The notes below the pieces were generated by a model. That model was not told the DNA's origin, searched no databases, and worked only from the letters and a program-made list of their open reading frames with translations. Below are positions 33,101 to 41,692 of a DNA stretch of 64,000 nt, one piece after another. The position numbers were made by a program, and so were the translations under genes. The stretch is from a virus (Duplodnaviria; Caudoviricetes). Each line of letters starts with the position of its first letter. The stretch's first letter is position 1. The stretch is taken from the IMG/VR virus record IMGVR_UViG_3300033074_001364, positions 5,465-69,464 of that record, one strand, 5' to 3'.

Positions 33101-33569
33101 CTGATGCCTGCGCGGCTGGATTGATGCGACTCAAACCAACCGCAGCAGCGGACGTCGCTTGGTTATAGCGGCCAAAGGTCGGGCCACCCGCAGCAGTGAT
33201 CTGCTGAAGCAGCCGCATTTCCTTCGCTGTCTCCGCAACCGTGGGGGCGAAGCCCAGCGCACCCATCGCCCGCATTCCCGACTGCAATCCAGCGAGGCTG
33301 CGGGTAAGCGCCTGAACTGGCGATAGACTCGCCCTGGCGGCTGCTGCAACCGCTGCGATGGGAGCCGCACCGGCACCGCCAATGGGCTGACCGTTCGGGC
33401 CAAGAATTACACCACGCGCGGCGCCAGCGGCCGCAGCGGCGCGAGCACTCGCGGCCTGCGTGGCGTTGATTGCCTGCTGTGCTTGCAGTGCAGCGTTGCG
33501 CACCGCCTGCATCTGCGCGATAGCGAACGCAGCATTAGTTTGGAAGAAGATCGCGAAGTCTTGTCCCAC
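30174..33569 (-). CDS. Tape measure protein
   Basis: 1131 aa, Ala-rich helical, TP901-like core (LIDGFQQAG...TGSEVGNTFRT). Confidence 0.9.
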   Translation of the reverse strand: MGQDFAIFFQTNAAFAIAQMQAVRNAALQAQQAINATQAASARAAAAAGAARGVILGPNGQPIGGAGAAPIAAVAAAARASLSPVQALTRSLAGLQSGMRAMGALGFAPTVAETAKEMRLLQQITAAGGPTFGRYNQATSAAAVGLSRINPAAQASAAQLRAQRDALDNSSASFQRHATRIGETIVLYAALAAAAAGVTQAVGLATTIDRETRRLEAVTGLNQMQSPQFVRDVFDIAVSTVTPVEELLGEADRAASAFLDLEAGAQRAAAAELLLENAGKLSTVSQRDVGTEVSNLIAIMNQANVPVEKLGDVIGQIVVAGGGASTMISDLIDGFQQAGRGAREAGVEFPVLLALMREFILETGRTGSEVGNTFRTLFATILNDPRAEKGFQAITGGLVSIFDSAGNLRSVTEVLLDVIALEQQGVIETEKLDQLFTELTPPLNPGAKADLAILYESMKNIRGEVQLIGQADVSNLDSLVAKINSALGPQFAQFIEQVKSGFNDLFGEQIIASGQGLLNFLKLIGDVLRALPPDVLRGVGAFIALAVAFKGIMFVGGALLNLIGFAGVRGAISAASLAAAQAGVSFGLMGKGIAAATFLLKRFLPLALAMAAIEIGGTVIDQNAREAALLGAGFTPEQAAESFGIPTTPGRGDRKQGRISEPVFQFNENQRENLTRLGQALVQMEQSGQSNAESQARMKAAILDTNGAINSQLVSIEDILTAGAGLNETLDGTTTEFDRQYEAALRAALGISEMTEEQRIAAEASELVKATLKDQADDLDDLAERFRTGKITAEEFAQGQQLVSQAADLAAQLVAASSEQLAQYPMFADAAAKGNETLTQRIYDLIVASGGSIDVISQVIDQIIKLAAANAGAAESMRNNPLIAFIGVARMDGSLGNEAGERFVQRGRTGANASNQASVQAANQVQSAAAQVERQLQNLLDSLVTGFGGGFSGSPSFGNVPKIGGGKDPSPPRINLFDIGDLPRDQLEKALKMAFALQASIPGATAANKDEILSLLKDAEFLKQVKGLDDELLRKTIQRLIEVEEERLALERKAANFMSNVVVNQGSFSSLISQPATIAGGGFFAGTGLNSNGQAITINIGTIAGGQLSRDQLMKLVYEALAKALAEGARL

Positions 33570-33621
33570 GGACGAACTCGTCTAGGAAGATCGAGCCATC
33601 CGCGCTCGGAAGAATCCGGTA

Positions 33622-33650
33622 TTGACTACTGCTCGTCTAGGCCGTACTGT
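33622..33650 (+). promoter_or_regulatory. Moron promoter TTGACT-N17-TACTGT
   Basis: TTGACTACT variant; ATG 6 nt after the -10 box. Confidence 0.7.
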
Positions 33651-33656
33651 TTAGGC

Positions 33657-33890
33657 ATGACCGACGAGTATCCGCCCGTGGTGGTCGAGCACTACAAGGG
33701 CAAGGACGCGCACAAGCTTTATGAGGGCTGGGTGGGCGTCTGGGCGAAGCGGGGCTACGTTCCCATCAACGTCGTGACGTCAGGCGGTGGCTTCTCTGCC
33801 GGCCACATCCTCGCCTTCGGTATCGCTGGCCTCGCCGCCCGCAAGGAAACCGTGTTGACTGTCACCTACAAGCGCGAGGCGGCTACGTAG
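33657..33890 (+). CDS. Antisense moron, 77-aa protein with hydrophobic segment
   Basis: MTDEYPPVV...HILAFGIAGLAA; has its own promoter. Confidence 0.7.
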   Translation: MTDEYPPVVVEHYKGKDAHKLYEGWVGVWAKRGYVPINVVTSGGGFSAGHILAFGIAGLAARKETVLTVTYKREAAT

Positions 33891-34191
33891 CGCGCTCGAC
33901 CTCGCGGTCGCTGTCGAAGTACATCGCGCTTGACCCGCCGCCTTCCTTGCCGGGGGCGTGATCCTCGATGTATCGCGCGCATTTCTTGGCGGAATGCCAA
34001 ATTGACTTCGGTGGCCGCTGCTCCTCGGTTAGGTGCTCGAAGAACGACAGGATCCGACGGGCCTCGACCACGCAGTACGAGATCGTCCACGGCCAATCAC
34101 TGGGCGACTTCCAGCGGGAGAAGATCGGTTGTCCGCTGCGGTCAGCCGTGGCGACGATGTTCAGGAATCCAGCTGACCGAGCGATTTTCCC
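33883..34191 (-). CDS. Tail assembly chaperone, -1 frameshift extension
   Basis: GGGAAAA slippery heptamer at 34185-34191 opens frame GKIARSAGF... Confidence 0.75.
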   Translation of the reverse strand, partial: GKIARSAGFLNIVATADRSGQPIFSRWKSPSDWPWTISYCVVEARRILSFFEHLTEEQRPPKSIWHSAKKCARYIEDHAPGKEGGGSSAMYFDSDREVERAT

Positions 34192-34937
34192 AGGCCAGGC
34201 TCCATGTCCAGCAGTAGTGCGCGATGCGTATCGGCGAGTTGCGTATAAGCGGACGGTCGCTGCGAGCGGAACTTCTCCAACTCGCTCAAGGTCTTGAACG
34301 TCGGCTTCTTGTATCCCTTGTCGTTGAAGGTACAGCGCACGATCACTTCGGAGGTATAGCGCGACTGCCACTCGCTCGCCACGATCGTCTCGATGTGCGC
34401 GGGCTTCGCGCTTTCGAGCAGCGCATCGTGGTCGATCGCCTCCGCCTCCTTGTTGAGCGCAAGACGCGCGGACTCGATGGCTTCCAGCAGGGCCGTCAGG
34501 CGATCCTTCTCAGCCGCTTCGACCGCCTCCTCGTAGGCGTCCTCCTCCTTTGAGGTGGTGATGCCTTCTGGCTCTGGAACGTACTCCCGCTCCTCCAGAG
34601 AGTTCTGCTGAATCTCCACCGCCCTCGTCATCAGATGGCCGTTGACCCAGATGTTTCTCAGCTGCTCAGGGTCGGCGTCTTCGAGCGCTTCGATCAGGAG
34701 GTTCTGGTGCTCCTCGCTCTTGGGGTCCGCGAGGCGCTTGCGCATCGCGCGTCGCGCAGCGTTCGCGGCGCCCATCGCGACCTGGCGCTCAATGTCGCTC
34801 GGGCGGCGTACGAACAGGCGCAGCGTCGCGTCAACGTAGCGATCGCCCTCGCGCTTGCGCACGGTGAGATCGAGGGGCTCGGGGTCAGTTAGGAGTTCGT
34901 CAAGCGTGACGAAGCGGGGCGTCGGGGTATCGGGCAT
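34161..34937 (-). CDS. Tail assembly chaperone
   Basis: ATG after GGAAGGA; upstream of tape measure; ends at the slippery site. Confidence 0.8.
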   Translation of the reverse strand: MPDTPTPRFVTLDELLTDPEPLDLTVRKREGDRYVDATLRLFVRRPSDIERQVAMGAANAARRAMRKRLADPKSEEHQNLLIEALEDADPEQLRNIWVNGHLMTRAVEIQQNSLEEREYVPEPEGITTSKEEDAYEEAVEAAEKDRLTALLEAIESARLALNKEAEAIDHDALLESAKPAHIETIVASEWQSRYTSEVIVRCTFNDKGYKKPTFKTLSELEKFRSQRPSAYTQLADTHRALLLDMEPGLGKSLGQLDS

Positions 34938-34949
34938 AGGATTCCTTCC

Positions 34950-35004
34950 AACAAATAAGAACGCCCGGTAGACGAGCGCAAGCGAGCGCACGCGTTCCGG
35001 GCGT
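34950..35004 (-). terminator. Terminator-like hairpin with U-rich tail
   Basis: acgcccgg/ccgggcgt stem followed by TCTTATTTGTT on the minus strand. Confidence 0.5.
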
Positions 35005-35033
35005 GGGGTTCCTTCCTGAGATGGGTATGAGTA

Positions 35034-35548
35034 GGCCCCGCTGGCAGGACGAGTGACCAGCGGGGCCGGATGCCTCCCCGGAGGGAGGACGAATGGAGCA
35101 GGGACTCTACCCTGACGACAGCCCTATCGTTGATGTTAGTGTCAACTGTTGTACTGCCGACCACCCGTTGGGTTCCACCCACAGATTCGACCTTGTTAGG
35201 GCCTCCCGCTGAGTCAGTACCGTTGGCCCTGCGCTCAGTCGGTTTTCTTCTGCCGGATGTGCGTTCTGGCCCTCTAGGGATAGCCAGATTCCGCCATCTC
35301 CCTGCCCAAGGAGCAACCCCTGAGCATTATCTAATCGGCATACTCCCTTGCGGGTTCGGGCCAGTATGCCAGTGGCCCGGTCTGACGATGGTAAGGCGAC
35401 CCCACCATCCGCGGGCTCGTTACCCGACTCGTCGAGCTCTTTGGTCGGCGTCCACCCGAGCCTCAAGAGGGAGCTCGTCATCGGTTGTCATTCAGGAGGG
35501 CTAGCCAGCTGAATGTTCCGACGATCACGGTGGTTGTCCTCATCGACT
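35034..35548 (-). ncRNA. Candidate large structured ncRNA (~450-515 nt)
   Basis: Own promoter; many nested helices, GNRA loop, two possible pseudoknots; strong 3' hairpin 35034-35067. Confidence 0.65.
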
Positions 35549-35554
35549 GACGAC

Positions 35555-35584
35555 AGTCTACCACACACCTACGCTAGTAGTCAC
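35555..35584 (-). promoter_or_regulatory. Phage promoter motif GTGACT-N18-TAGACT
   Basis: Motif match upstream of the candidate RNA. Confidence 0.78.
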
Positions 35585-35605
35585 GGGGTAGTAGGTGAAG
35601 ATTCC

Positions 35606-36748
35606 TTACGCCACCACGCGCAGCAGGTTCGATGGGATGCGGTTGACGACCGAGTTCGGCAGCGATCCATTCCAGTGGGCCGTCGCCTCATACTCGGCGT
35701 AAATCTTCCCCGTGTTGCCCGCGTAGTCGATGACGTAGGCGCCGAACTCCTGTAGGGCTCGGGCGACGATCTTGCCGGTGGCCGTCAGGGCGCGGTTCTG
35801 TGAATCTCTCACCTGGTCGAGGTTGACGGACGGATCGAGGAAGATGCGGCTGCCCTCTGGGATACCACCATTGGTGGGTCCATCGCTCTTGGTGGCTGGA
35901 TACACATGCTGCGGTCCGACGCTGTTGCAGCCCACCACGAGAGCATGGGGGATGCGACCCGCTGCAATCTCATGCGGGCGGATCAGGCCAGCGTAGTAGG
36001 GGACACCAGCGCCACGAGAGGCGTACACGGTCGGGTGCGTGGTGCCCTTGCCGTACATGCCGCCGACCAGCAGGGATCCGTTCGATGCCGTGGCGGTGCG
36101 TGCTGTTCGGTTGACGTTACGGACCTGCCACAGGTCGAGCTCGTCGCCGTTCGTCAGGTCAACAGCGATGATCTGACCATCACTGCCAGCCGATACGGTG
36201 AAGTCCGATGGAAGCCGAACGGTGAATCGCTTGTTCGGAGCATCGCTGGCAGAGGTGCCCTTGTAGACCTTGGCTGCACCCGTGCAGGTGATCGTCCAGA
36301 CCGGCGCAGACTCGTTGGCGAAGTAGACCGGGTAGCTGTACTGGGTGGGGTCGATGCTGACGAAGGCGATGCGATTGATCCACTCAGCAGAGCGTGAATG
36401 CACCTGTGGGTTGGCAGGTAGTGGCGTGTTCCATGGAGAGTCAGCGCTGTAGGGGCGCGACAGTGGGTTCCATGAGGTGGGGTCTGGCTCTGGCTCAGGC
36501 TGTGGATCAGGCTCGGGATCCGGCTCAGGTTCTGGTTCCGGGTCAGGTTCGGGGTCTGGCTCGGGGCCAGGCTCAGACTCTAGGAGATTCGCCAAGCGGT
36601 GGAGGAACGCCACCATCTGGGCACGCGACGTCGGTTGGTCGGGCGCAAACTTCCCGCCGCCTACTCCGAACGTGATGCCGTTCTCGGCTGCCCACTCAAT
36701 GTCGTCGTAGAAGGGATGATTAAGGGGGACATCGCTGAAGCGGGTCAT
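35606..36748 (-). CDS. SLH-domain protein with (EPDP)n linker and uncharacterised C-terminal domain
   Basis: FSDVPLNHPFYDDIEWAAENGIT.G....F.P...TSRAQM. Confidence 0.8.
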   Translation of the reverse strand: MTRFSDVPLNHPFYDDIEWAAENGITFGVGGGKFAPDQPTSRAQMVAFLHRLANLLESEPGPEPDPEPDPEPEPEPDPEPDPQPEPEPDPTSWNPLSRPYSADSPWNTPLPANPQVHSRSAEWINRIAFVSIDPTQYSYPVYFANESAPVWTITCTGAAKVYKGTSASDAPNKRFTVRLPSDFTVSAGSDGQIIAVDLTNGDELDLWQVRNVNRTARTATASNGSLLVGGMYGKGTTHPTVYASRGAGVPYYAGLIRPHEIAAGRIPHALVVGCNSVGPQHVYPATKSDGPTNGGIPEGSRIFLDPSVNLDQVRDSQNRALTATGKIVARALQEFGAYVIDYAGNTGKIYAEYEATAHWNGSLPNSVVNRIPSNLLRVVA

Positions 36749-36762
36749 GGGTCCTCGAAGGT

Positions 36763-36837
36763 TGGAGCCGCCAGGGTGAATCGAACACCCGCTGAGGCCA
36801 TACAAAGGGCTCTGTCTGCCACTAACGATATGGCGGC
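36763..36837 (-). tRNA. tRNA-Thr(TGT)
   Basis: Cloverleaf, loop TT-TGT-AT, one stem mismatch, CCA. Confidence 0.75.
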
Positions 36838-36863
36838 TTGGAATAGTCCCCCTAGATTTGAAT

Positions 36864-36938
36864 TGGAGGTCCAGGTCCGATTCGAACGGACGTGACTGCG
36901 TTACGACGGCAGCATCCTAGCCACTAGATGACTAGACC
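36864..36938 (-). tRNA. tRNA-Thr(CGT)
   Basis: Cloverleaf, loop GT-CGT-AA; body lacks typical C2-G71. Confidence 0.7.
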
Positions 36939-36939
36939 T

Positions 36940-37014
36940 TGGTACCCAATGACAGAATCGAACTGCCACCTACTGGATGTAAGCCAGTCGTCCTATCCGT
37001 TAGACGAATCGGGC
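36940..37014 (-). tRNA. tRNA-Val(TAC)
   Basis: Cloverleaf, CCA. Confidence 0.9.
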
Positions 37015-37182
37015 AGGGTGGGCACGCGTGGGCCGAAGCCAGACCGTGCCGCTGTCCGTTGCGGGAGCGCAGTACTACGCGTAACCCCGGACCGGAATGA
37101 ATGGGAGAGTGCTACATGGCATTGCTTTCAGAGAACCGCCCGAGGCGGCACGCCTTCGCATTGCTCCTTATGCGTGATGAAA

Positions 37183-37256
37183 TGGAGCCATCGTCCATAA
37201 TCGAAATGGAACCTTCCCCTTACCACAGGGATGCTCGGCCTTCGAGCTACGACGGC
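37183..37256 (-). tRNA. tRNA-Thr(GGT)
   Basis: Cloverleaf, CCA. Confidence 0.88.
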
Positions 37257-37261
37257 TTGTG

Positions 37262-37337
37262 TGGTCTGAGTGGAGCGGCTCGAACGCCCGACAGCCGCGC
37301 CCCAAACGCGGTGCTCTACCTACTGAGCTACACTCAG
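37262..37337 (-). tRNA. tRNA-Pro(TGG)
   Basis: Cloverleaf, CCA. Confidence 0.9.
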
Positions 37338-37348
37338 ACGACTAATAC

Positions 37349-37436
37349 TGGCGGATGGACGAGGATTCGAACCTCGGTAGGCTTGCGCCCGCAATCCTTA
37401 GCAGGGATGCCCGATTGGCCGCTCCGGCACCCATCC
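37349..37436 (-). tRNA. tRNA-Ser(GCT)
   Basis: Long variable arm, G73, CCA. Confidence 0.92.
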
Positions 37437-37437
37437 G

Positions 37438-37513
37438 TGGAGAGCCTGGTCGGGATCGAACCGACGTCCAGCTGCTTAAAAGGCAGCCGCTCTGCCGCTG
37501 AGCTTACAGGCCC
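37438..37513 (-). tRNA. tRNA-Lys(TTT)
   Basis: Cloverleaf, CCA. Confidence 0.9.
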
Positions 37514-37541
37514 TTGATAAGGCGGCAAACTTCTGTATAAG

Positions 37542-37615
37542 TGGAGCACTCTCTCGGATTCGAACCGAGGTGACGTGGGTTGCAACCACGCCGCTGGCCG
37601 CTCGCGCAAGAGTGC
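37542..37615 (-). tRNA. tRNA-Cys(GCA)
   Basis: Cloverleaf, U73, CCA. Confidence 0.92.
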
Positions 37616-37616
37616 T

Positions 37617-37691
37617 TGGTCAGGGGCATCGGCTATGATCCGATCCTGTCAGCGCCACAAGCTGAAGTGCTGCCACCTACACCAGCCCCTA
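37617..37691 (-). tRNA. tRNA-His(GTG), atypical
   Basis: Cloverleaf; T-loop ATCATAG, A73, no encoded G-1. Confidence 0.75.
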
Positions 37692-37761
37692 GTTGGAAGC
37701 GAGCCGCCGGTACTCTCACCTTTCAACCGGCATCGTTCGCCCTGTGAGGGGACTCGCTGTG

Positions 37762-37810
37762 TGCTGGATATGGTCGGCAACAAGTGCGTGACTGCCGACC
37801 ATATCCAGCA
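37762..37810. repeat. Perfect 18-bp inverted repeat
   Basis: tgctggatatggtcggca-N13-tgccgaccatatccagca. Confidence 0.92.
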
Positions 37811-37836
37811 ATACCGTAGCGTTTCCGGTACGGTTG

Positions 37837-37909
37837 TGGCACCGCAGACAGGAGTCGGACCTGTAGCAAGTCGTTTTGGAGACGACCGCGCTCCCACGAG
37901 CTCGGCGGC
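37837..37909 (-). tRNA. tRNA-Trp(CCA)
   Basis: Loop CT-CCA-AA, G73, short D-loop, T-loop TCCGACT. Confidence 0.8.
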
Positions 37910-37916
37910 ATGGATG

Positions 37917-37993
37917 TGGTCGCCCTCCTGCGATTCGAACGCAGAACCTCCTCCTCTTGAGGGAGTCGCCTCTACCAGTTGGGCTAGAGGGCG
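37917..37993 (-). tRNA. tRNA-Leu(CAA), short variable loop
   Basis: Cloverleaf, CCA. Confidence 0.85.
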
Positions 37994-38039
37994 TAGACGG
38001 GCCGGGGAATCCTCGCGAGGGCTGTCCGACCCGTATGAA

Positions 38040-38115
38040 TGGTGGTCCCCCAGAGATTCGAACTCTGACTGGCACGCTCCTAAGGCGTGTGCCTCTACCG
38101 TTGGGCTAGAGAACC
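38040..38115 (-). tRNA. tRNA-Leu(TAG), short variable loop
   Basis: Cloverleaf, CCA. Confidence 0.88.
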
Positions 38116-38121
38116 AGGTGT

Positions 38122-38196
38122 TGGTGGAGCTAAGTGGATTCGAACCACCGACCCGCTGCTTGCAAAGCAGCCGCTCTCCCACTGAGCTACAGCCCC
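38122..38196 (-). tRNA. tRNA-Ala(TGC)
   Basis: Cloverleaf, G3-U70, CCA. Confidence 0.95.
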
Positions 38197-38205
38197 ATGA
38201 ATGAT

Positions 38206-38281
38206 TGGCGGAACCGAAGGGATTTGAACCCTCGACCTTCAGCGTGACAAGCTGACATGCTGACCGCTACACCACGGCTCC
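38206..38281 (-). tRNA. tRNA-Asp(GTC)
   Basis: Cloverleaf, G73, CCA. Confidence 0.95.
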
Positions 38282-38348
38282 GCGGTGTCGTCTGTTGCGC
38301 CAAACCCTACAAATCTGTGAGTTGGCAGCGAACAAGTGACACTGATGT

Positions 38349-38420
38349 TGGCGCCTCCCGAAGGATTCGAACCCTCAATTGCGGCTTAGAACACCGCTAC
38401 CGCTCCTATCGGAGAGAGGC
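38349..38420 (-). tRNA. tRNA-Arg(TCT)
   Basis: Loop GT-TCT-AA, reduced D-arm, CCA. Confidence 0.75.
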
Positions 38421-38428
38421 AGAATGAG

Positions 38429-38506
38429 TGGAGCGGCAGGTGGGATTCGAACCCACGAGAAGCCTGCTTGGAAGGCAGGTGCCATAGGCCGCTAGGCGAC
38501 TACCGC
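38429..38506 (-). tRNA. tRNA-Gly(TCC)
   Basis: Cloverleaf, U73, CCA. Confidence 0.93.
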
Positions 38507-38507
38507 T

Positions 38508-38559
38508 TGGTGGAGCGTCCCCGGACTCTTACCGGATTGGCTAGCATCATGCTCGCCCC
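38508..38559 (-). ncRNA. 52-nt tRNA-like mini-RNA with Ala-type acceptor end
   Basis: GGGGCG/CGCTCC stem with G3-U70, A73, CCA, T-like arm, no anticodon arm. Confidence 0.45.
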
Positions 38560-38563
38560 AAGT

Positions 38564-38641
38564 TGGTACGCTCGGGGTGACTCGAACACCCGACGCGCAG
38601 GTTCGAAGCCTGCCGCTCTGGATCCACTGAGCTACGAGCGT
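38564..38641 (-). tRNA. tRNA-Arg(TCG)
   Basis: Cloverleaf, CCA. Confidence 0.92.
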
Positions 38642-38728
38642 GTGGTCGGTCGGGGACTCACCGCCCTACTGGCGGGCCTCGCCCCTCCCGATTGCGTACG
38701 CGCCCCACGAGGCTAAGGGCAGATGGAA

Positions 38729-38805
38729 TGGTACCGCCTGCCGGATTCGAACCGGCGATCTCCGGGGTGAAAACCCGGCGCCTTGGGCCACTTGGCTAAG
38801 GCGGC
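38729..38805 (-). tRNA. tRNA-Glu(TTC)
   Basis: Cloverleaf, CCA. Confidence 0.92.
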
Positions 38806-38964
38806 ATGTGGGGCAGAGCGGAGTAAGGGAATGCACCGGGCGTATACACCACGGGTCCTACTTCAAGCGATTACCCCAGAGTCGGCGGACGAAGGCCCTT
38901 GCCCGCCAGTCCACGTCTTGGCCTACTACCTAACCTGCGAACAGGGGGTGCCGTGGACCGTAGT

Positions 38965-39039
38965 TGGTGCCCTGACAGGGGGTCGAACCCTGGTCGACGC
39001 CGTGAGAAGGCGCCATCCTGACCACTAGACGATCAAGGC
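38965..39039 (-). tRNA. tRNA-Glu(CTC)
   Basis: Cloverleaf, CCA. Confidence 0.92.
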
Positions 39040-39044
39040 GATGT

Positions 39045-39120
39045 TGGTGAGCCTGGTAGGGATTGAACCTACGACCTTGGGCTTAAGAGGCCCCTGCTGC
39101 TGCCGCTGAGCTACAGGCCC
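39045..39120 (-). tRNA. tRNA-Lys(CTT)
   Basis: Cloverleaf, CCA. Confidence 0.92.
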
Positions 39121-39121
39121 G

Positions 39122-39198
39122 TGGCTGCCACCCAAGGAATCGAACCTCGAAGCACCTGATTCAAAGTCAGGCCGCTGTACCTATTTGCGTAGGTGGCA
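39122..39198 (-). tRNA. tRNA-Gln(TTG)
   Basis: U1-A72, G73, CCA. Confidence 0.92.
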
Positions 39199-39298
39199 AT
39201 GTTCTGTGTCGTATACATACCCTGTGAGAGTATAACGACGTTACACTTCATACGATGTGTAAGCGTTGCTATCACTGACTGCAAGAGATGCTTACAGA

Positions 39299-39383
39299 TG
39301 GTGCCTTAGGTGGGATTCGAACCCACGAACCCAGAGGGGCCACGTTTACAGCGTGGCTGCTTTGGCCGCTTGCATACCTCGGC
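39299..39383 (-). tRNA. tRNA-Tyr(GTA)
   Basis: Long variable arm, CCA. Confidence 0.92.
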
Positions 39384-39449
39384 ACTGTGTAGTCGAGCCC
39401 TTGCAAGAGTTACCCGGACAGTTTGGTCCCGTCCAGTTGCTCGACATGA

Positions 39450-39538
39450 TGGTGGTGTAGGGTCCGGTTCGAACGGATACTCGCACTGTCCTATCAGCTG
39501 GTGACGGCGCTTTCACGCGTACTGTTCGCGTCCCTACA
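39450..39538 (-). ncRNA. Atypical tRNA-like element
   Basis: TGTAGGG/CCCTACA acceptor, TTCGAAC T-loop, D-like hairpin, irregular long central arm, CCACCA end. Confidence 0.5.
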
Positions 39539-39682
39539 TGATGAATAACGATGGGCGCCGTCCTTACCACTTTCACTGGATCACGGTCGCCCACCGGAGA
39601 CTCAGCACCGAGGTCTAACACTTCACCCGAAGGTGGCGGCGTTATAGGGATCCCACGACGCCGCTCTCGATGCCTACATAAA

Positions 39683-39758
39683 TGGTGCCGCCCGCTGGTT
39701 ACGATCCAGCGACCTCCGCGGTTTCAGCGCGGCGCTCTACCAGCTGAGCTAGAGCGGC
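39683..39758 (-). tRNA. tRNA-Phe(GAA)
   Basis: Cloverleaf; T-loop ATCGTAA. Confidence 0.9.
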
Positions 39759-39821
39759 AAGTACGGGGCTGGTGCTAACGAGGCCACTTACTCGGCTCCA
39801 CGATCAGCCGACACCCCTGAT

Positions 39822-39905
39822 TGGCTGGCGCGGGAGGACTTGAACCTCCAAGCCTTACGGCGGCTGGTTAACAGCCAGCTGCGGCTACCATTTCGCCACA
39901 CGCCA
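39822..39905 (-). tRNA. tRNA-Asn(GTT) with long variable arm
   Basis: Loop CT-GTT-AA, G73, variable arm GCC-GTAA-GGC. Confidence 0.85.
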
Positions 39906-39987
39906 ACGCTAATTCCCCAGTTGCCCAGATCCATTACGGAGGACTGCTCCTACTGGTAATCGCCGGACCCGCCACAGTCGGGATAAT

Positions 39988-40064
39988 TGGTAGCCCCCGT
40001 CCGACTCGAACGGACGACCCTCACCATATCAGAGTGATGCTCTAACCAACTGAGCTAGAGGGCT
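39988..40064 (-). tRNA. tRNA-Ile(GAT)
   Basis: Cloverleaf, CCA. Confidence 0.93.
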
Positions 40065-40174
40065 ACGACTGGATACAGCTTCCCGGCGCATCAAGCCGCT
40101 GCCGCGTTATCCCATGACTCTGCGCGCATCCCCACGGGATTAATACCGGGCCACCTACCTCTGCATCCATGATT

Positions 40175-40244
40175 TGGTTGCGGGTTGGGGGTACGATCCC
40201 CACGCCATGAGGTTATGAGCCTCTGGAGGCACCATGCACCCGCG
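40175..40244 (-). tRNA. tRNA-Met(CAT), initiator-like C1:A72
   Basis: 70 nt, reduced D-arm, T-loop ATCGTAC, lacks the three G-C pairs of the initiator anticodon stem. Confidence 0.75.
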
Positions 40245-40631
40245 ATGTTGTGATTCCGCCTACACAATGCAGGATCACAAGCGCTACTTGCTACCCCTGC
40301 ATCACCACTCCAACGCTAGTAGCGAACTAGCAGCCTAACCCCGGCGGAATCGTATGAATCGGATCGGAGTACCACCATTCCGAGGCGCTTCAGGGAGCAG
40401 TGCGCGACCGCTTACGCCGGCTAATAAATAGGTGGTGTTTGCCTGGACACGCGCTTGTTACTGATGCGTTCCCGAAGGACCATCGAGTACGTCGATCCAG
40501 AGCGATGGTTGACATTCCACCGCCGTCCTCCCTCGTCGGCGTCACCCGACTTCCTAACTGCTTCCACCATGGCGAAGATGGCTCCCTCACAGGTTTGATC
40601 TCTGAGGATTCAGTATTCACCACCGTATGAA
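40245..40631 (-). ncRNA. Candidate structured RNA(s) in the longest tRNA spacer
   Basis: Closing helices GGTGGTG/CACCACC and GATTCCGCC/GGCGGAATC plus internal hairpins. Confidence 0.45.
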
Positions 40632-40706
40632 TGGAGCGGGCGCCGGGAGTCGAACCCGAACGTCAACCTTGGCAAGGTTGCAGGCAGACCGTTACATCAC
40701 ACCCGC
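40632..40706 (-). tRNA. tRNA-Gly(GCC)
   Basis: Cloverleaf, U73, CCA. Confidence 0.9.
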
Positions 40707-40805
40707 TAGTGCCGGTTACGGATCCGGCTTGGCTTCTAGCCGGTTCGCGTGTCCGACATCACCAACGTGCTGCCCCCGTCATACCATGACGGAAACAGGA
40801 ATGAT

Positions 40806-40882
40806 TGGCTGCACAGGAACGAGTCGAACGTTCAAGCACCTGCTTCAGAGGCAAGCGGCTCTACCAATTTGCCTACTGTGCA
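40806..40882 (-). tRNA. tRNA-Gln(CTG)
   Basis: U1-A72, G73, CCA. Confidence 0.92.
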
Positions 40883-40902
40883 GCGAGTACAGATTGTTAA
40901 GG

Positions 40903-40991
40903 TGGCGGAGCGAGAGTCGAGTCGAACGCTCAAGGCCCTAGGGCTCGTCCGGGTTCAAACCGGGTGCCGTCGCCAATCGGCTTGCCGCTCC
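40903..40991 (-). tRNA. tRNA-Ser(TGA)
   Basis: Long variable arm, G73, bulged T-stem, CCA. Confidence 0.85.
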
Positions 40992-41009
40992 GTCGAATCA
41001 ATTGAGGCC

Positions 41010-41039
41010 ACTCTACCATACTAGTCAAGTAGTAGTCAC
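41010..41039 (-). promoter_or_regulatory. tRNA-array promoter GTGACT-N18-TAGAGT
   Basis: Motif match 18 nt upstream of the first tRNA. Confidence 0.75.
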
Positions 41040-41692
41040 GGCAGGTAGGCAAGTGGGTTCTGCCAGTACCCGTCGCGCGCGAGCGCGAGGTGCAGATGGC
41101 ACCCGGTCGCATTGCCGGTCATGCCCACGCCAGCGATCGCGACGCCAGCGCTGACGTACGCGCCGACGTTGACGAGCGCGGTCGATAGGTGGTTGTAGCT
41201 CACCAGCAGCCCCTCATCGGTCAGCTGCTCCACCACCAAGCCGCCACCGTTGTTCTTCCAGCCCATCCAGGTGATGACGCCGGATCCCAACGCAGCCACG
41301 GAAGTGCCACAGGGCGCTCCGATGTCGATGGCGGTATGCACCTGAGAGTAGTAGGTGGTGATCCTGCCTGCGACCGGCCACACGCGTACGAATGAGGGCG
41401 GTGGTGGTGGTGTTGCGGTGGGGGCTGCCAACGGTGTCGCATCAGGGTCGATGGCGACTGGCGTTGGGAAGGAGGTGGGTTCGGGGGTCGGAGTCGCGTC
41501 GGCGGTGCGCTGCGATAGCGGCGACCGCGATGCGTCGTTGCGGACGTTCGCTGTGACGATGGAGAGCAGGCGGGGCTCTGGCGGCGGCGCCTGGTCGGCA
41601 GCGAGAACGTTGGCGACGAGGTTGGGGTAGGTCGAGACGCTAACGAGCGCCAGCAAGCCTACGGCAGCAAGATGGGAGAGCCATTTCTTCAT
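41036..41692 (-). CDS. M23 family metallopeptidase with signal peptide and Pro/Thr linker
   Basis: HTAID, YNHL, GNATGCHLH motifs. Confidence 0.9.
   Translation of the reverse strand: MKKWLSHLAAVGLLALVSVSTYPNLVANVLAADQAPPPEPRLLSIVTANVRNDASRSPLSQRTADATPTPEPTSFPTPVAIDPDATPLAAPTATPPPPPSFVRVWPVAGRITTYYSQVHTAIDIGAPCGTSVAALGSGVITWMGWKNNGGGLVVEQLTDEGLLVSYNHLSTALVNVGAYVSAGVAIAGVGMTGNATGCHLHLALARDGYWQNPLAYLP

Follow-up and report, generated by a model that had tools for sequence, protein, structure and literature searches.

The virus record from which the sequence was taken (IMG/VR) is linear and 69.5 kb long, with an estimated completeness of about 59%. The stretch analysed here, referred to as the window, is a 64,000-nt part of that record. 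All genes around the locus of interest are carried on the minus strand. Along the direction of transcription, a gene for an M23 peptidase (41692-41036) is followed by an array of at least 26 tRNA genes (40882-36763, ARAGORN) that ends in Thr-tgt (36763-36837), a gene for an SLH-domain, minor-tail-like protein (35606..36762; PF00395 SLH, E 2.7e-11; phrog_17388, E 1e-17), an intergenic gap of 668 nt (35605-34938), a gene called chaperone-like, an overlapping shifted ORF, and the tape measure gene (33569-30174; PF10145 match). The chaperone-like gene (34164..34949, with the RBS GGAAGGAA at 34949-34942 and the ATG at 34937) is the first gene of the tail operon, and was identified by its coding signal and by 14 homolog clusters. 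The SLH gene is situated between the last tRNA and the promoter of the putative RNA described below, and the tRNA array lies 1.2 kb upstream of this RNA on the same strand.

Cultured relatives were sought among 50,697 phage records. Neither the gap, searched by blastn, nor the chaperone-like protein, searched by tblastn, matched any of these records, and the best tblastn matches of another protein of the phage, of no more than 31% identity, were to glycosyltransferase genes of assorted phages. Such matches pointed to no host and to no cultured relative. The phage is a member of an uncultured siphovirus-like lineage, and no cultured phage proved close to it in these comparisons.

The gap shows no coding signal

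An initial annotation of this DNA, made from the sequence, had described about 600 nt without a credible gene in the gap. Between about 35640 and 35040, codon log-odds trained on the long genes of the phage itself were below zero in each of the three minus-strand frames, and they were positive across the SLH gene and the chaperone-like gene. Open frames do exist in the gap, and it could therefore encode a protein after all, either in ORF124 (35481-35107, minus), in the antisense ORF144 (35070-35504, plus) or in an ORF of 21 codons (35543-35478). However, ORF124, ORF144 and a further frame, ORF97, scored only -0.26 to -0.43 per codon, compared to +0.3 to +0.4 for real genes, and showed flat GC1/2/3, with GC3 about equal to GC1, whereas GC3 of real genes was 0.71-0.81.

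Comparison with a homologous locus (L006, see below) was informative in this regard. ORF144 showed 41% identity over 102 aa to the antisense strand of L006, but this is the value that the DNA identity of 71% yields without selection. The substitution rate in the alignment of the window and L006 was nearly flat across codon positions, the middle codon position was the most changed in the frame of ORF144, and the indels, of 1, 1, 2 and 4 nt, were frame-breaking. The 21-codon ORF starts 12 nt past the -10 element of the promoter described below, an ATG spacing like that of real genes at other copies of this promoter, but the ORF is missing in L006 and in two other homologous loci, L007 and L009. 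The initial annotation had also allowed that the 124-aa ORF might prove to be conserved as a protein; no homologs of either ORF124 or ORF144 were found among 5.8 billion protein clusters. We consider it extremely unlikely that the gap is protein-coding, and the description of a stretch of about 600 nt without a credible gene is upheld.

A promoter-like motif that recurs in the phage

The promoter reported by the initial annotation, GTGACT-N18-TAGACT, is present as a 30-mer on the minus strand (35584-35555), with a TG ahead of the -10 element, and is one copy of a recurring phage motif. When at most one mismatch was allowed, 11 copies were found in the window, all on the minus strand, against an expected number of 0.17. 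The copies have in common the longer consensus GTGACTACT-N13-GGTAGACT, including the TG typical of extended -10 promoters. The other copies are followed either by a start codon, about 5-40 nt downstream, or by the tRNA array, which comes next after the copy at 41039-41010 (minus). Only the copy at 35584-35555 has about 610 gene-free nt after it.

A generic sigma-70 scan does not flag 35584-35555, where 8 of 12 consensus positions match, and the case for a promoter is therefore built on recurrence and position. The sub-motif CTACT-N13-GGTAGA is found just ahead of the RNA in L006, L007 and L009, and was absent from about 165 unrelated loci. We predict that the motif is a lineage-specific, sigma-70-like promoter of the extended -10 type, and that transcription of the RNA would start near 35548. 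The predicted body of the RNA, from this start to the end of a terminal hairpin, spans 35034..35548 on the minus strand (about 515 nt), or about 600 nt if the transcript ends at a terminator at 34950.

Content of the slot between the tRNA array and the tail genes

Relatives of the phage were reached through the chaperone-like protein, whose 14 homolog clusters showed 40-57% identity, and the contigs of these relatives (designated by L numbers) were compared. In L004, an array of 27 tRNA genes is syntenic with that of the window, with the genes in the same order. Relatives differ in what occupies the slot from the last tRNA (Thr) to the chaperone-like gene. In L006 (630 nt), L007 (636 nt) and L009 (374 nt) this slot contains the promoter motif followed by a structured RNA related to that of the window. 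In L004 the promoter is followed by a different element, of about 200 nt and with many GNRA loops, for which a cmscan search against Rfam found nothing. L114 and L115 have other non-coding stretches, and that of L115 is related to the 3' part of the RNA in L007. In L003 and L116 the slot holds just a spacer (AUCAU...GGAAGGA) followed by a terminator hairpin and its U-run.

The SLH gene is absent from the slot in L003, L004, L006, L009, L114 and L116, and where it is absent, the last tRNA directly precedes either the promoter and RNA or the terminator; in L006 and L009 the RNA promoter comes right after the last tRNA. Since no relative has an SLH gene at this place, that of the window is an additional gene, inserted between the array of tRNAs and the RNA cassette.

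The promoter, the RNA and the terminal hairpin occur together in the window, L006, L007 and L009, and all three are missing in L003 and L116, in which the same spacer and terminator directly adjoin the last tRNA. In addition, the 3' domains of the RNAs have been exchanged: the window and L006 have one domain (domain B), and L007 has a different module, which it has in common with L115. This pattern of joint presence or absence, together with the swapping of 3' domains, fits accessory RNA genes better than an essential control element. The RNA family is thus known from four loci of one uncultured siphovirus-like lineage, with a patchy occurrence among close relatives.

A conserved core with an H-type pseudoknot

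All four RNAs contain a core of roughly 90 nt in which an AGUC, a hairpin (H1), a CG linker, a second hairpin (H2), a short linker and an H-type pseudoknot follow one another in the same order. H1 of the window (35412..35426, minus), preceded on its 5' side by the conserved AGUC, has the stem CGGG/CCCG and the 7-nt loop UAACGAG, and was recovered by the covariance model R1 described below (E 3.4e-4). The loop is kept as URACGAG in all four sequences, on stems of 4-6 bp that read CCUCCA/UGGAGG in L006, CCUCGC/GCGAGG in L007 and CCUCAC/GUGAGG in L009. H2 (35387..35409, minus) has the apex GGGGUCGCC, invariant in all four, on a covarying stem of about 9 bp with the variants GAUGGU/ACCAUC, as in the window, GGCCGA/UCGGUU and GGUCUA/UAGAUU.

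The initial annotation had proposed a pseudoknot formed by GGCAUAC (35370-35364) and GUAUGCC (35343-35337). Comparison of the four sequences confirms this pairing as helix b of an H-type pseudoknot (35337..35379, minus), interlocked with helix a, CGGGCCA/UGGCCCG (35379-35373 with 35363-35357). The topology is the same in all four RNAs, with a loop 1 of 1-2 nt, a loop 2 of 0 nt and a loop 3 of 9-13 nt. The counterparts of helix a are UCCUG/CGGGA in L006, GGUGC/GCACC in L007 and GGCGC/GCGCC in L009, and those of helix b are GGCAGGC/GCCUGCC, GGCAGG/CCUGCC and GGCAGG/CCUGCU, respectively. Both helices therefore covary, in that their sequences differ yet stay complementary across the four homologs; MAFFT misaligns the pseudoknot of the window, as well as the 5' domains. 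A CCC-GCAA-GGG hairpin with a GNRA loop, which had also been annotated, is indeed present, within loop 3 of the pseudoknot, but it is specific to the window.

We built a covariance model of the core (R1) from L006, L007 and L009 alone, with the window excluded. The sole significant match of R1 in the window was at 35431-35352 on the minus strand (26 bits, E 3.4e-4), as expected in both position and orientation, and no match was obtained in L003, L004, L005, L114, L115 or L116. As R1 matches the window once, the core is a single-copy element, and not a feature of the other ten promoter copies.

Compensatory changes in the 3' domain

Domain B (35084..35328, minus) is 245 nt long and consists of an apical hairpin (35326-35303) and a multi-branch domain. 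Alignment of the window (35328-35084) with L006 (1687-1929) gave 71% identity over 247 nt (E 2e-26), and the consensus structure derived from it has 69 pairs in 11 helices, with 100% of the pairs formed in both the window and L006. The apical hairpin is GCUCAGGGG/CUCCUUGGGC, and the multi-branch domain is closed by a helix of 8 bp between GGGAGAUG (35303-35296) and CAUUCGUCC (35095-35086). Enclosed by this helix are a CUGGC/GCCAG hairpin, a long branched arm with a CUGAG/CUCAG hairpin, a hairpin with a 30-nt loop and a T-arm-like hairpin. The CUGAG/CUCAG pairing, which the initial annotation had suggested as a second pseudoknot, is instead a plain nested hairpin stem (helix 7 of the consensus).

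Between the window and L006, 23 of the 69 pairs are changed, 13 by double compensatory and 10 by single compatible substitutions, and none is broken; this covariation draws on two sequences (on four for the family as a whole) and in part on a structure taken from the same alignment. When the pairing partners were slid by 1-3 columns as a control, no double changes were seen and pairing fell to 34-46%. Because the structure of domain B had been derived from the same alignment, 200 column-shuffled alignments were refolded in the same way. In the shuffled alignments, double changes averaged 5.0 and numbered at most 11, compared to the 13 observed, and the consensus energy was -42.5 on average and -54.7 at best, compared to -80.5 observed, so that 0 of 200 reached the observed values. 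A covariance model of domain B (R2) matches the window and L006 only.

Folding of individual sequences was less instructive. The single-sequence minimum-energy folds of domain B from the window and from L006 agree in 28 of about 80 pairs. As this makes single folds an unreliable guide, we relied on the consensus structure. The whole stretch has a moderately unusual fold energy (z -3.9 for the minus strand and -2.1 for the plus strand), and the separate domains do not (z -1.1 to -1.5).

The 5' domain (35427..35548, minus) was delineated from the minimum-energy fold, in which a CAUUCAG/CUGAAUG hairpin (35515-35489) lies within the helix UCGUCGG/CCGAUGA, and GAGCUC (35476-35471) pairs with GAGCUC (35439-35434). 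The 5' domains of the relatives have analogous helices round a loop of 22-31 nt, but their sequences align poorly, and comparison lends the predicted structure weak support. The helices listed by the initial annotation thus fared differently. GAUGGU/ACCAUC, GCUCAGGGG/CUCCUUGGGC and CUGGC/GCCAG are kept by compensatory changes, whereas CAUUCAG/CUGAAUG is seen only in the minimum-energy fold of a 5' part that cannot be aligned.

We also searched for further members of the family. Neither the chaperone-like protein nor its alignment led to a confirmed relative in IMG/VR, in JGI metagenome contigs or in GTDB genome contigs. The 103 and 61 stretches retrieved by pattern scans of IMG/VR were chance matches throughout, as judged by blastn or R1, and two stricter pattern scans returned nothing. 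A family that is confined to four loci, is patchy among close relatives and has gained no further members from scans of these three collections could be a decaying or selfish filler, that is, a remnant or a mobile insertion without phage function, whose hairpins are kept by shared ancestry. Against this, the 23 of 69 pairs that differ at 71% identity all still pair, and the URACGAG and GGGGUCGCC loops are invariant while the stems around them change. Changed but paired stems, together with invariant loops, indicate purifying selection on structure and not drift, and we regard a filler of this kind as very unlikely.

The 3' end of the RNA and the downstream terminator

Two strong hairpins had been annotated 3' of the helices and pseudoknots, and both were found on folding, at 35088-35073 and 35067-35034. 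The first, CCUCCC-UCCG-GGGAGG (-12.8 kcal/mol, z -2.9), overlaps the 3' strand of the closing helix of domain B by 3 nt, and L006 has a different hairpin at this place. The second is a G+C-rich terminal hairpin of 11-12 bp (-27.3 kcal/mol, z -5.2), followed by the conserved UAC-UCAUACCCA. The RNAs of the window, L006, L007 and L009 all end in a comparable strong G+C-rich hairpin, followed by YUACUCAUAYCCA. By pairing the start of each RNA with the UCAUA downstream of its terminal hairpin, a helix of 4-5 bp that would close the molecule can be constructed for all four RNAs; it was rejected as too short and inconsistent in register.

Further downstream, a conserved spacer (35005..35033, minus) contains the Shine-Dalgarno-like GGAAGGAAC (35016-35008), and is followed by a branched hairpin, ACGCCCGG...CCGGGCGU, with the interrupted U-run UCUUAUUUGUU (34950..35004, minus). 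A terminator scan and folding identified this hairpin, with its U-rich tail, as resembling an intrinsic terminator, in agreement with the terminator-like hairpins annotated ahead of the chaperone gene. A covarying hairpin with a U-run is found at the same place in L003, L004, L005, L006, L009, L115 and L116, and the same spacer lies directly 3' of the last tRNA in L003 and L116, which do not have the RNA. Since spacer and terminator are present where the RNA is absent, they are part of a terminator module at the end of the tRNA island and not of the RNA cassette. The U-run of the window is weaker than those of the relatives and, being interrupted, makes the terminator look leaky.

This arrangement raises the question of whether, as the initial annotation had suggested as an alternative, the RNA acts in cis, as a leader that lets transcription from 35584 pass the terminator (35004-34950) into a tail operon of roughly 15 kb, either by processive antitermination, as in HK022 put or Bacillus EAR, or by shielding or processing the 5' end. 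A promoter directly precedes the RNA, a conserved terminator that looks leaky follows it, and the RBS of the first tail gene is found 10 nt beyond this terminator. There are no further promoter copies (at most one mismatch) between 35555 and 19859. Some transcripts from 35584 would therefore have to cross the leaky terminator, with the RNA physically their leader, and a role in cis is to be reckoned with for this reason.

However, neither promoter nor RNA is present in L003 and L116, whose terminator and tail genes are the same, indicating that read-through does not need the RNA. The core occurs once in the window, and none of the other ten promoter copies is followed by it. Between the RNA and the terminator lie a stable hairpin and a spacer that also occurs where the RNA is absent, and we saw no conserved alternative pairing or riboswitch-like interplay between the two. 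The exchange of 3' domains between relatives, and a length of at least 500 nt, which is far above the sizes of known antiterminator RNAs, also argue against a cis-acting leader. On balance, we regard a leader role as rather unlikely, but as a serious alternative.

Comparison with catalogued RNA families

The initial annotation had suggested either a member of the class of ROOL and GOLLD or a new family, and had proposed cmscan against Rfam as a check. When 33500-41500 was compared with all 4227 models of Rfam 15 at E values up to 1, only tRNAs were found. With the isolated 681-nt stretch 34930-35610 and E values up to 10, the output was noise, the best match being sX13 at 21 bits against a threshold of 50, so that no family was matched in the gap. 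ARAGORN found no tmRNA in the window or in the leaders of the relatives.

Individual candidates fared no better. The covariance models of ROOL (RF03087) and GOLLD (RF01998) had no match in 33500-41500 (E up to 1) or in 34930-35610 (E up to 10), and neither ARAGORN nor the Rfam models for tmRNA, including its permuted form, gave a match. Resemblances to RNase P RNA that were seen by eye did not stand, and Rfam gave no match. A T-box or other riboswitch likewise lacked an Rfam match, and a hairpin and a 29-nt spacer part the RNA from the terminator. Hammerhead and pistol ribozymes, a group I intron in a split tRNA, and a mimicry of the sarcin-ricin loop or of an anticodon stem-loop by H1 were suggested by short resemblances noted by eye, with no support from Rfam or ARAGORN.

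The setting does resemble that of ROOL and GOLLD, which occur in phages near tRNA islands (10.1101/2024.12.08.627333). Nevertheless, with no credible match to any of the 4227 models and no tmRNA by ARAGORN, we find it barely conceivable that the RNA is a divergent member of a catalogued family, whether ROOL, GOLLD, tmRNA, RNase P RNA, a T-box or other riboswitch, or a group I intron. The first half of the suggestion is accordingly dropped, and the new family is the branch that remains.

Interpretation

Covariation in homologs and the lack of a coding signal support the central claim of the initial annotation, namely a large structured ncRNA that has its own promoter and lies next to the tRNA array. 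At the level of sequence, the comparisons establish a promoter motif that recurs, a stretch that is non-coding, selection on a secondary structure that includes a pseudoknot and invariant loops, and presence, absence and module exchange of the kind expected of a cassette. The best reading of these data is a new, rare and modular family of large phage ncRNAs, encoded in a promoter-RNA-hairpin cassette at the end of a tRNA island. The features by which we define this putative family are H1 with the loop URACGAG, H2 with the apex GGGGUCGCC, the pseudoknot, the lineage promoter, and the terminal hairpin with YUACUCAUAYCCA, and they were found in the window, L006, L007 and L009. The case for a real structured RNA, of an uncatalogued and rare family, is rather well supported. 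It belongs with the large ornate RNAs and other non-tRNA RNAs of phage tRNA islands, a kind already known in outline.

We propose, with a probability of roughly 0.6, that 35584-35034 (minus) is a gene for a large ncRNA of about 515 or 600 nt that belongs to an uncatalogued family, acts as RNA and is carried as accessory cargo. A transcript started by the lineage-specific promoter near 35548 would fold into a variable 5' domain and the conserved core, with its two invariant-loop hairpins and H-type pseudoknot. In the window and in L006, the core would be followed by the multi-branched 3' domain of 245 nt. The very stable terminal hairpin would close the RNA, with the terminator module, in which the tRNA island ends in all relatives, downstream of it. 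The RNA would be made as a discrete, stable molecule that acts in trans and, like the neighbouring tRNAs, it may be accessory cargo of a phage 'RNA island' and would probably act on translation or on RNA metabolism in the course of infection. Part of the transcripts would pass the weak terminator and also serve the tail operon.

A more specific proposal is that the RNA represents a new class, with a conserved pseudoknotted core to which exchangeable 3' domains (170-250 nt) are attached, and with a dedicated promoter where the tRNA island ends. Such an RNA would form an RNA-only machine like ROOL or GOLLD, either a self-assembling scaffold or a ribozyme or decoy that acts on tRNAs, ribosomes or host RNA-targeting defences. 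As it stands, this is an improbable conjecture.

Few bacterial and phage RNAs exceed about 400 nt and have intricate conserved folds. To our knowledge, each such class that has been studied (RNase P, tmRNA, OLE, ROOL, GOLLD, raiA) does something unusual. The RNA of the window would be a further, unrelated example in the niche of ROOL and GOLLD, at the edge of a phage tRNA island. Its clearly bounded unit, from promoter to hairpin, makes it handy for experiments, and the natural swapping of domains round a pseudoknotted core of about 90 nt may mark this core as the common functional unit. The finding also lends support to a view of phage 'tRNA islands' as RNA islands in a broader sense, with non-tRNA cargo that is for the most part unexplored.

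Several smaller RNAs provide partial parallels. The stable RNAs species 1 and 2 of T4 (rnaC and rnaD) are non-tRNA RNAs of about 120-140 nt in the T4 tRNA cluster, processed from a tRNA precursor and of unknown function. The RNA of the window is alike in its tRNA-cluster setting, but it is 4-5 times larger and is preceded by a promoter of its own. HK022 put RNA and Bacillus EAR are cis-acting processive antiterminator RNAs of about 70-120 nt, located right after the promoter and ahead of terminators in a long operon. The position of the RNA described here would fit such an element; however, it is single-copy, and it is lacking in relatives that have the same terminator and operon.

The closest comparison is with ROOL and GOLLD, RNAs of phages and prophages that are often found near tRNA islands and whose function is unknown (10.1101/2024.12.08.627333). 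Like GOLLD (RF01998) and ROOL (RF03087), the RNA predicted here from sequence would be a large, multi-domain, pseudoknotted ncRNA, borne by a phage and encoded beside a tRNA island. Unlike either of them, it is known from four loci of one uncultured lineage only, and matches neither covariance model. With GOLLD it has in common the division into one conserved and one variable part (10.1101/2024.12.08.627333). Yet it is smaller, and the conserved part, which in GOLLD is the 3' region, is here the central core, with a 3' domain that can be exchanged.

Promoter-like motifs and the tRNA island

The motif GTGACTACT-N13-GGTAGACT was found in 11 copies in the window, spanning positions 1394-58263, all 11 of which lie on the minus strand, and we regard it as a lineage-specific promoter-like motif. 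Most copies are followed by a start codon just 5-40 nt downstream, a spacing which suggests that many mRNAs are short-leader or leaderless. One copy (41010-41039, minus strand), which overlaps the M23 peptidase gene at its end, is directed straight into the tRNA array, so that the island appears to be served by a promoter of its own. Rfam models picked up two minus-strand tRNA-like genes that ARAGORN did not report, both at sub-threshold scores: one at 40907-40991 with the tRNA-Sec model (29.7 bits), the other at 37840-37909 with the tRNA model (26.6 bits). Judging by synteny with L004, a relative's contig reached via the chaperone-like protein, the two genes probably encode tRNA-Ser(tga) and tRNA-Trp.

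Variable contents between the tRNA island and the tail genes

Close behind the RNA promoter lies a 21-codon ORF, MRTTTVIVGTFSWLALLNDNR (35543-35478, minus strand), whose product is hydrophobic. Its start lies 12 nt past the -10 element, a distance also found at real genes. The relatives that carry the same promoter and RNA core (L006, L007 and L009) do not conserve this ORF. On the other side of the promoter, and preceded by the last tRNA, is a minor-tail-like gene that encodes an SLH domain and a Glu/Pro-rich linker (35606-36762, minus strand). This gene was not found at the corresponding place in any relative examined. It looks like a recent insertion and hints that the host has an SLH-anchored S-layer.

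In other relatives, different non-coding elements occupy this slot where the tRNA island ends. They include a GNRA-loop-rich element of ~200 nt, 3' of the same promoter type (L004:5690-5895), and an element at L114:79-345. Another module is common to L007 (467-636) and L115 (200-435), which are 78% identical there across 73 nt. Structured RNAs seem to gather in the slot.

Ahead of the tail genes, two Shine-Dalgarno-like copies of GGAAGGAA(C/U) flank the terminator hairpin on the minus strand, one immediately 5' of it (35016-35008) and the other, at 34949-34942, being the real ribosome-binding site. This arrangement is kept in L003, L004, L006, L009 and L116, with a hairpin stem that covaries. 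The doubling could provide a standby site, could serve to pair with the U-run, or could be left over from an insertion.

The chaperone-like gene (34164-34937, minus strand), whose protein had no match in Pfam or PHROG, overlaps a second open frame (33883-34371, minus strand) by ~200 nt. This overlap resembles the one in the frameshifted pairs of siphovirus tail assembly chaperones (G/GT).
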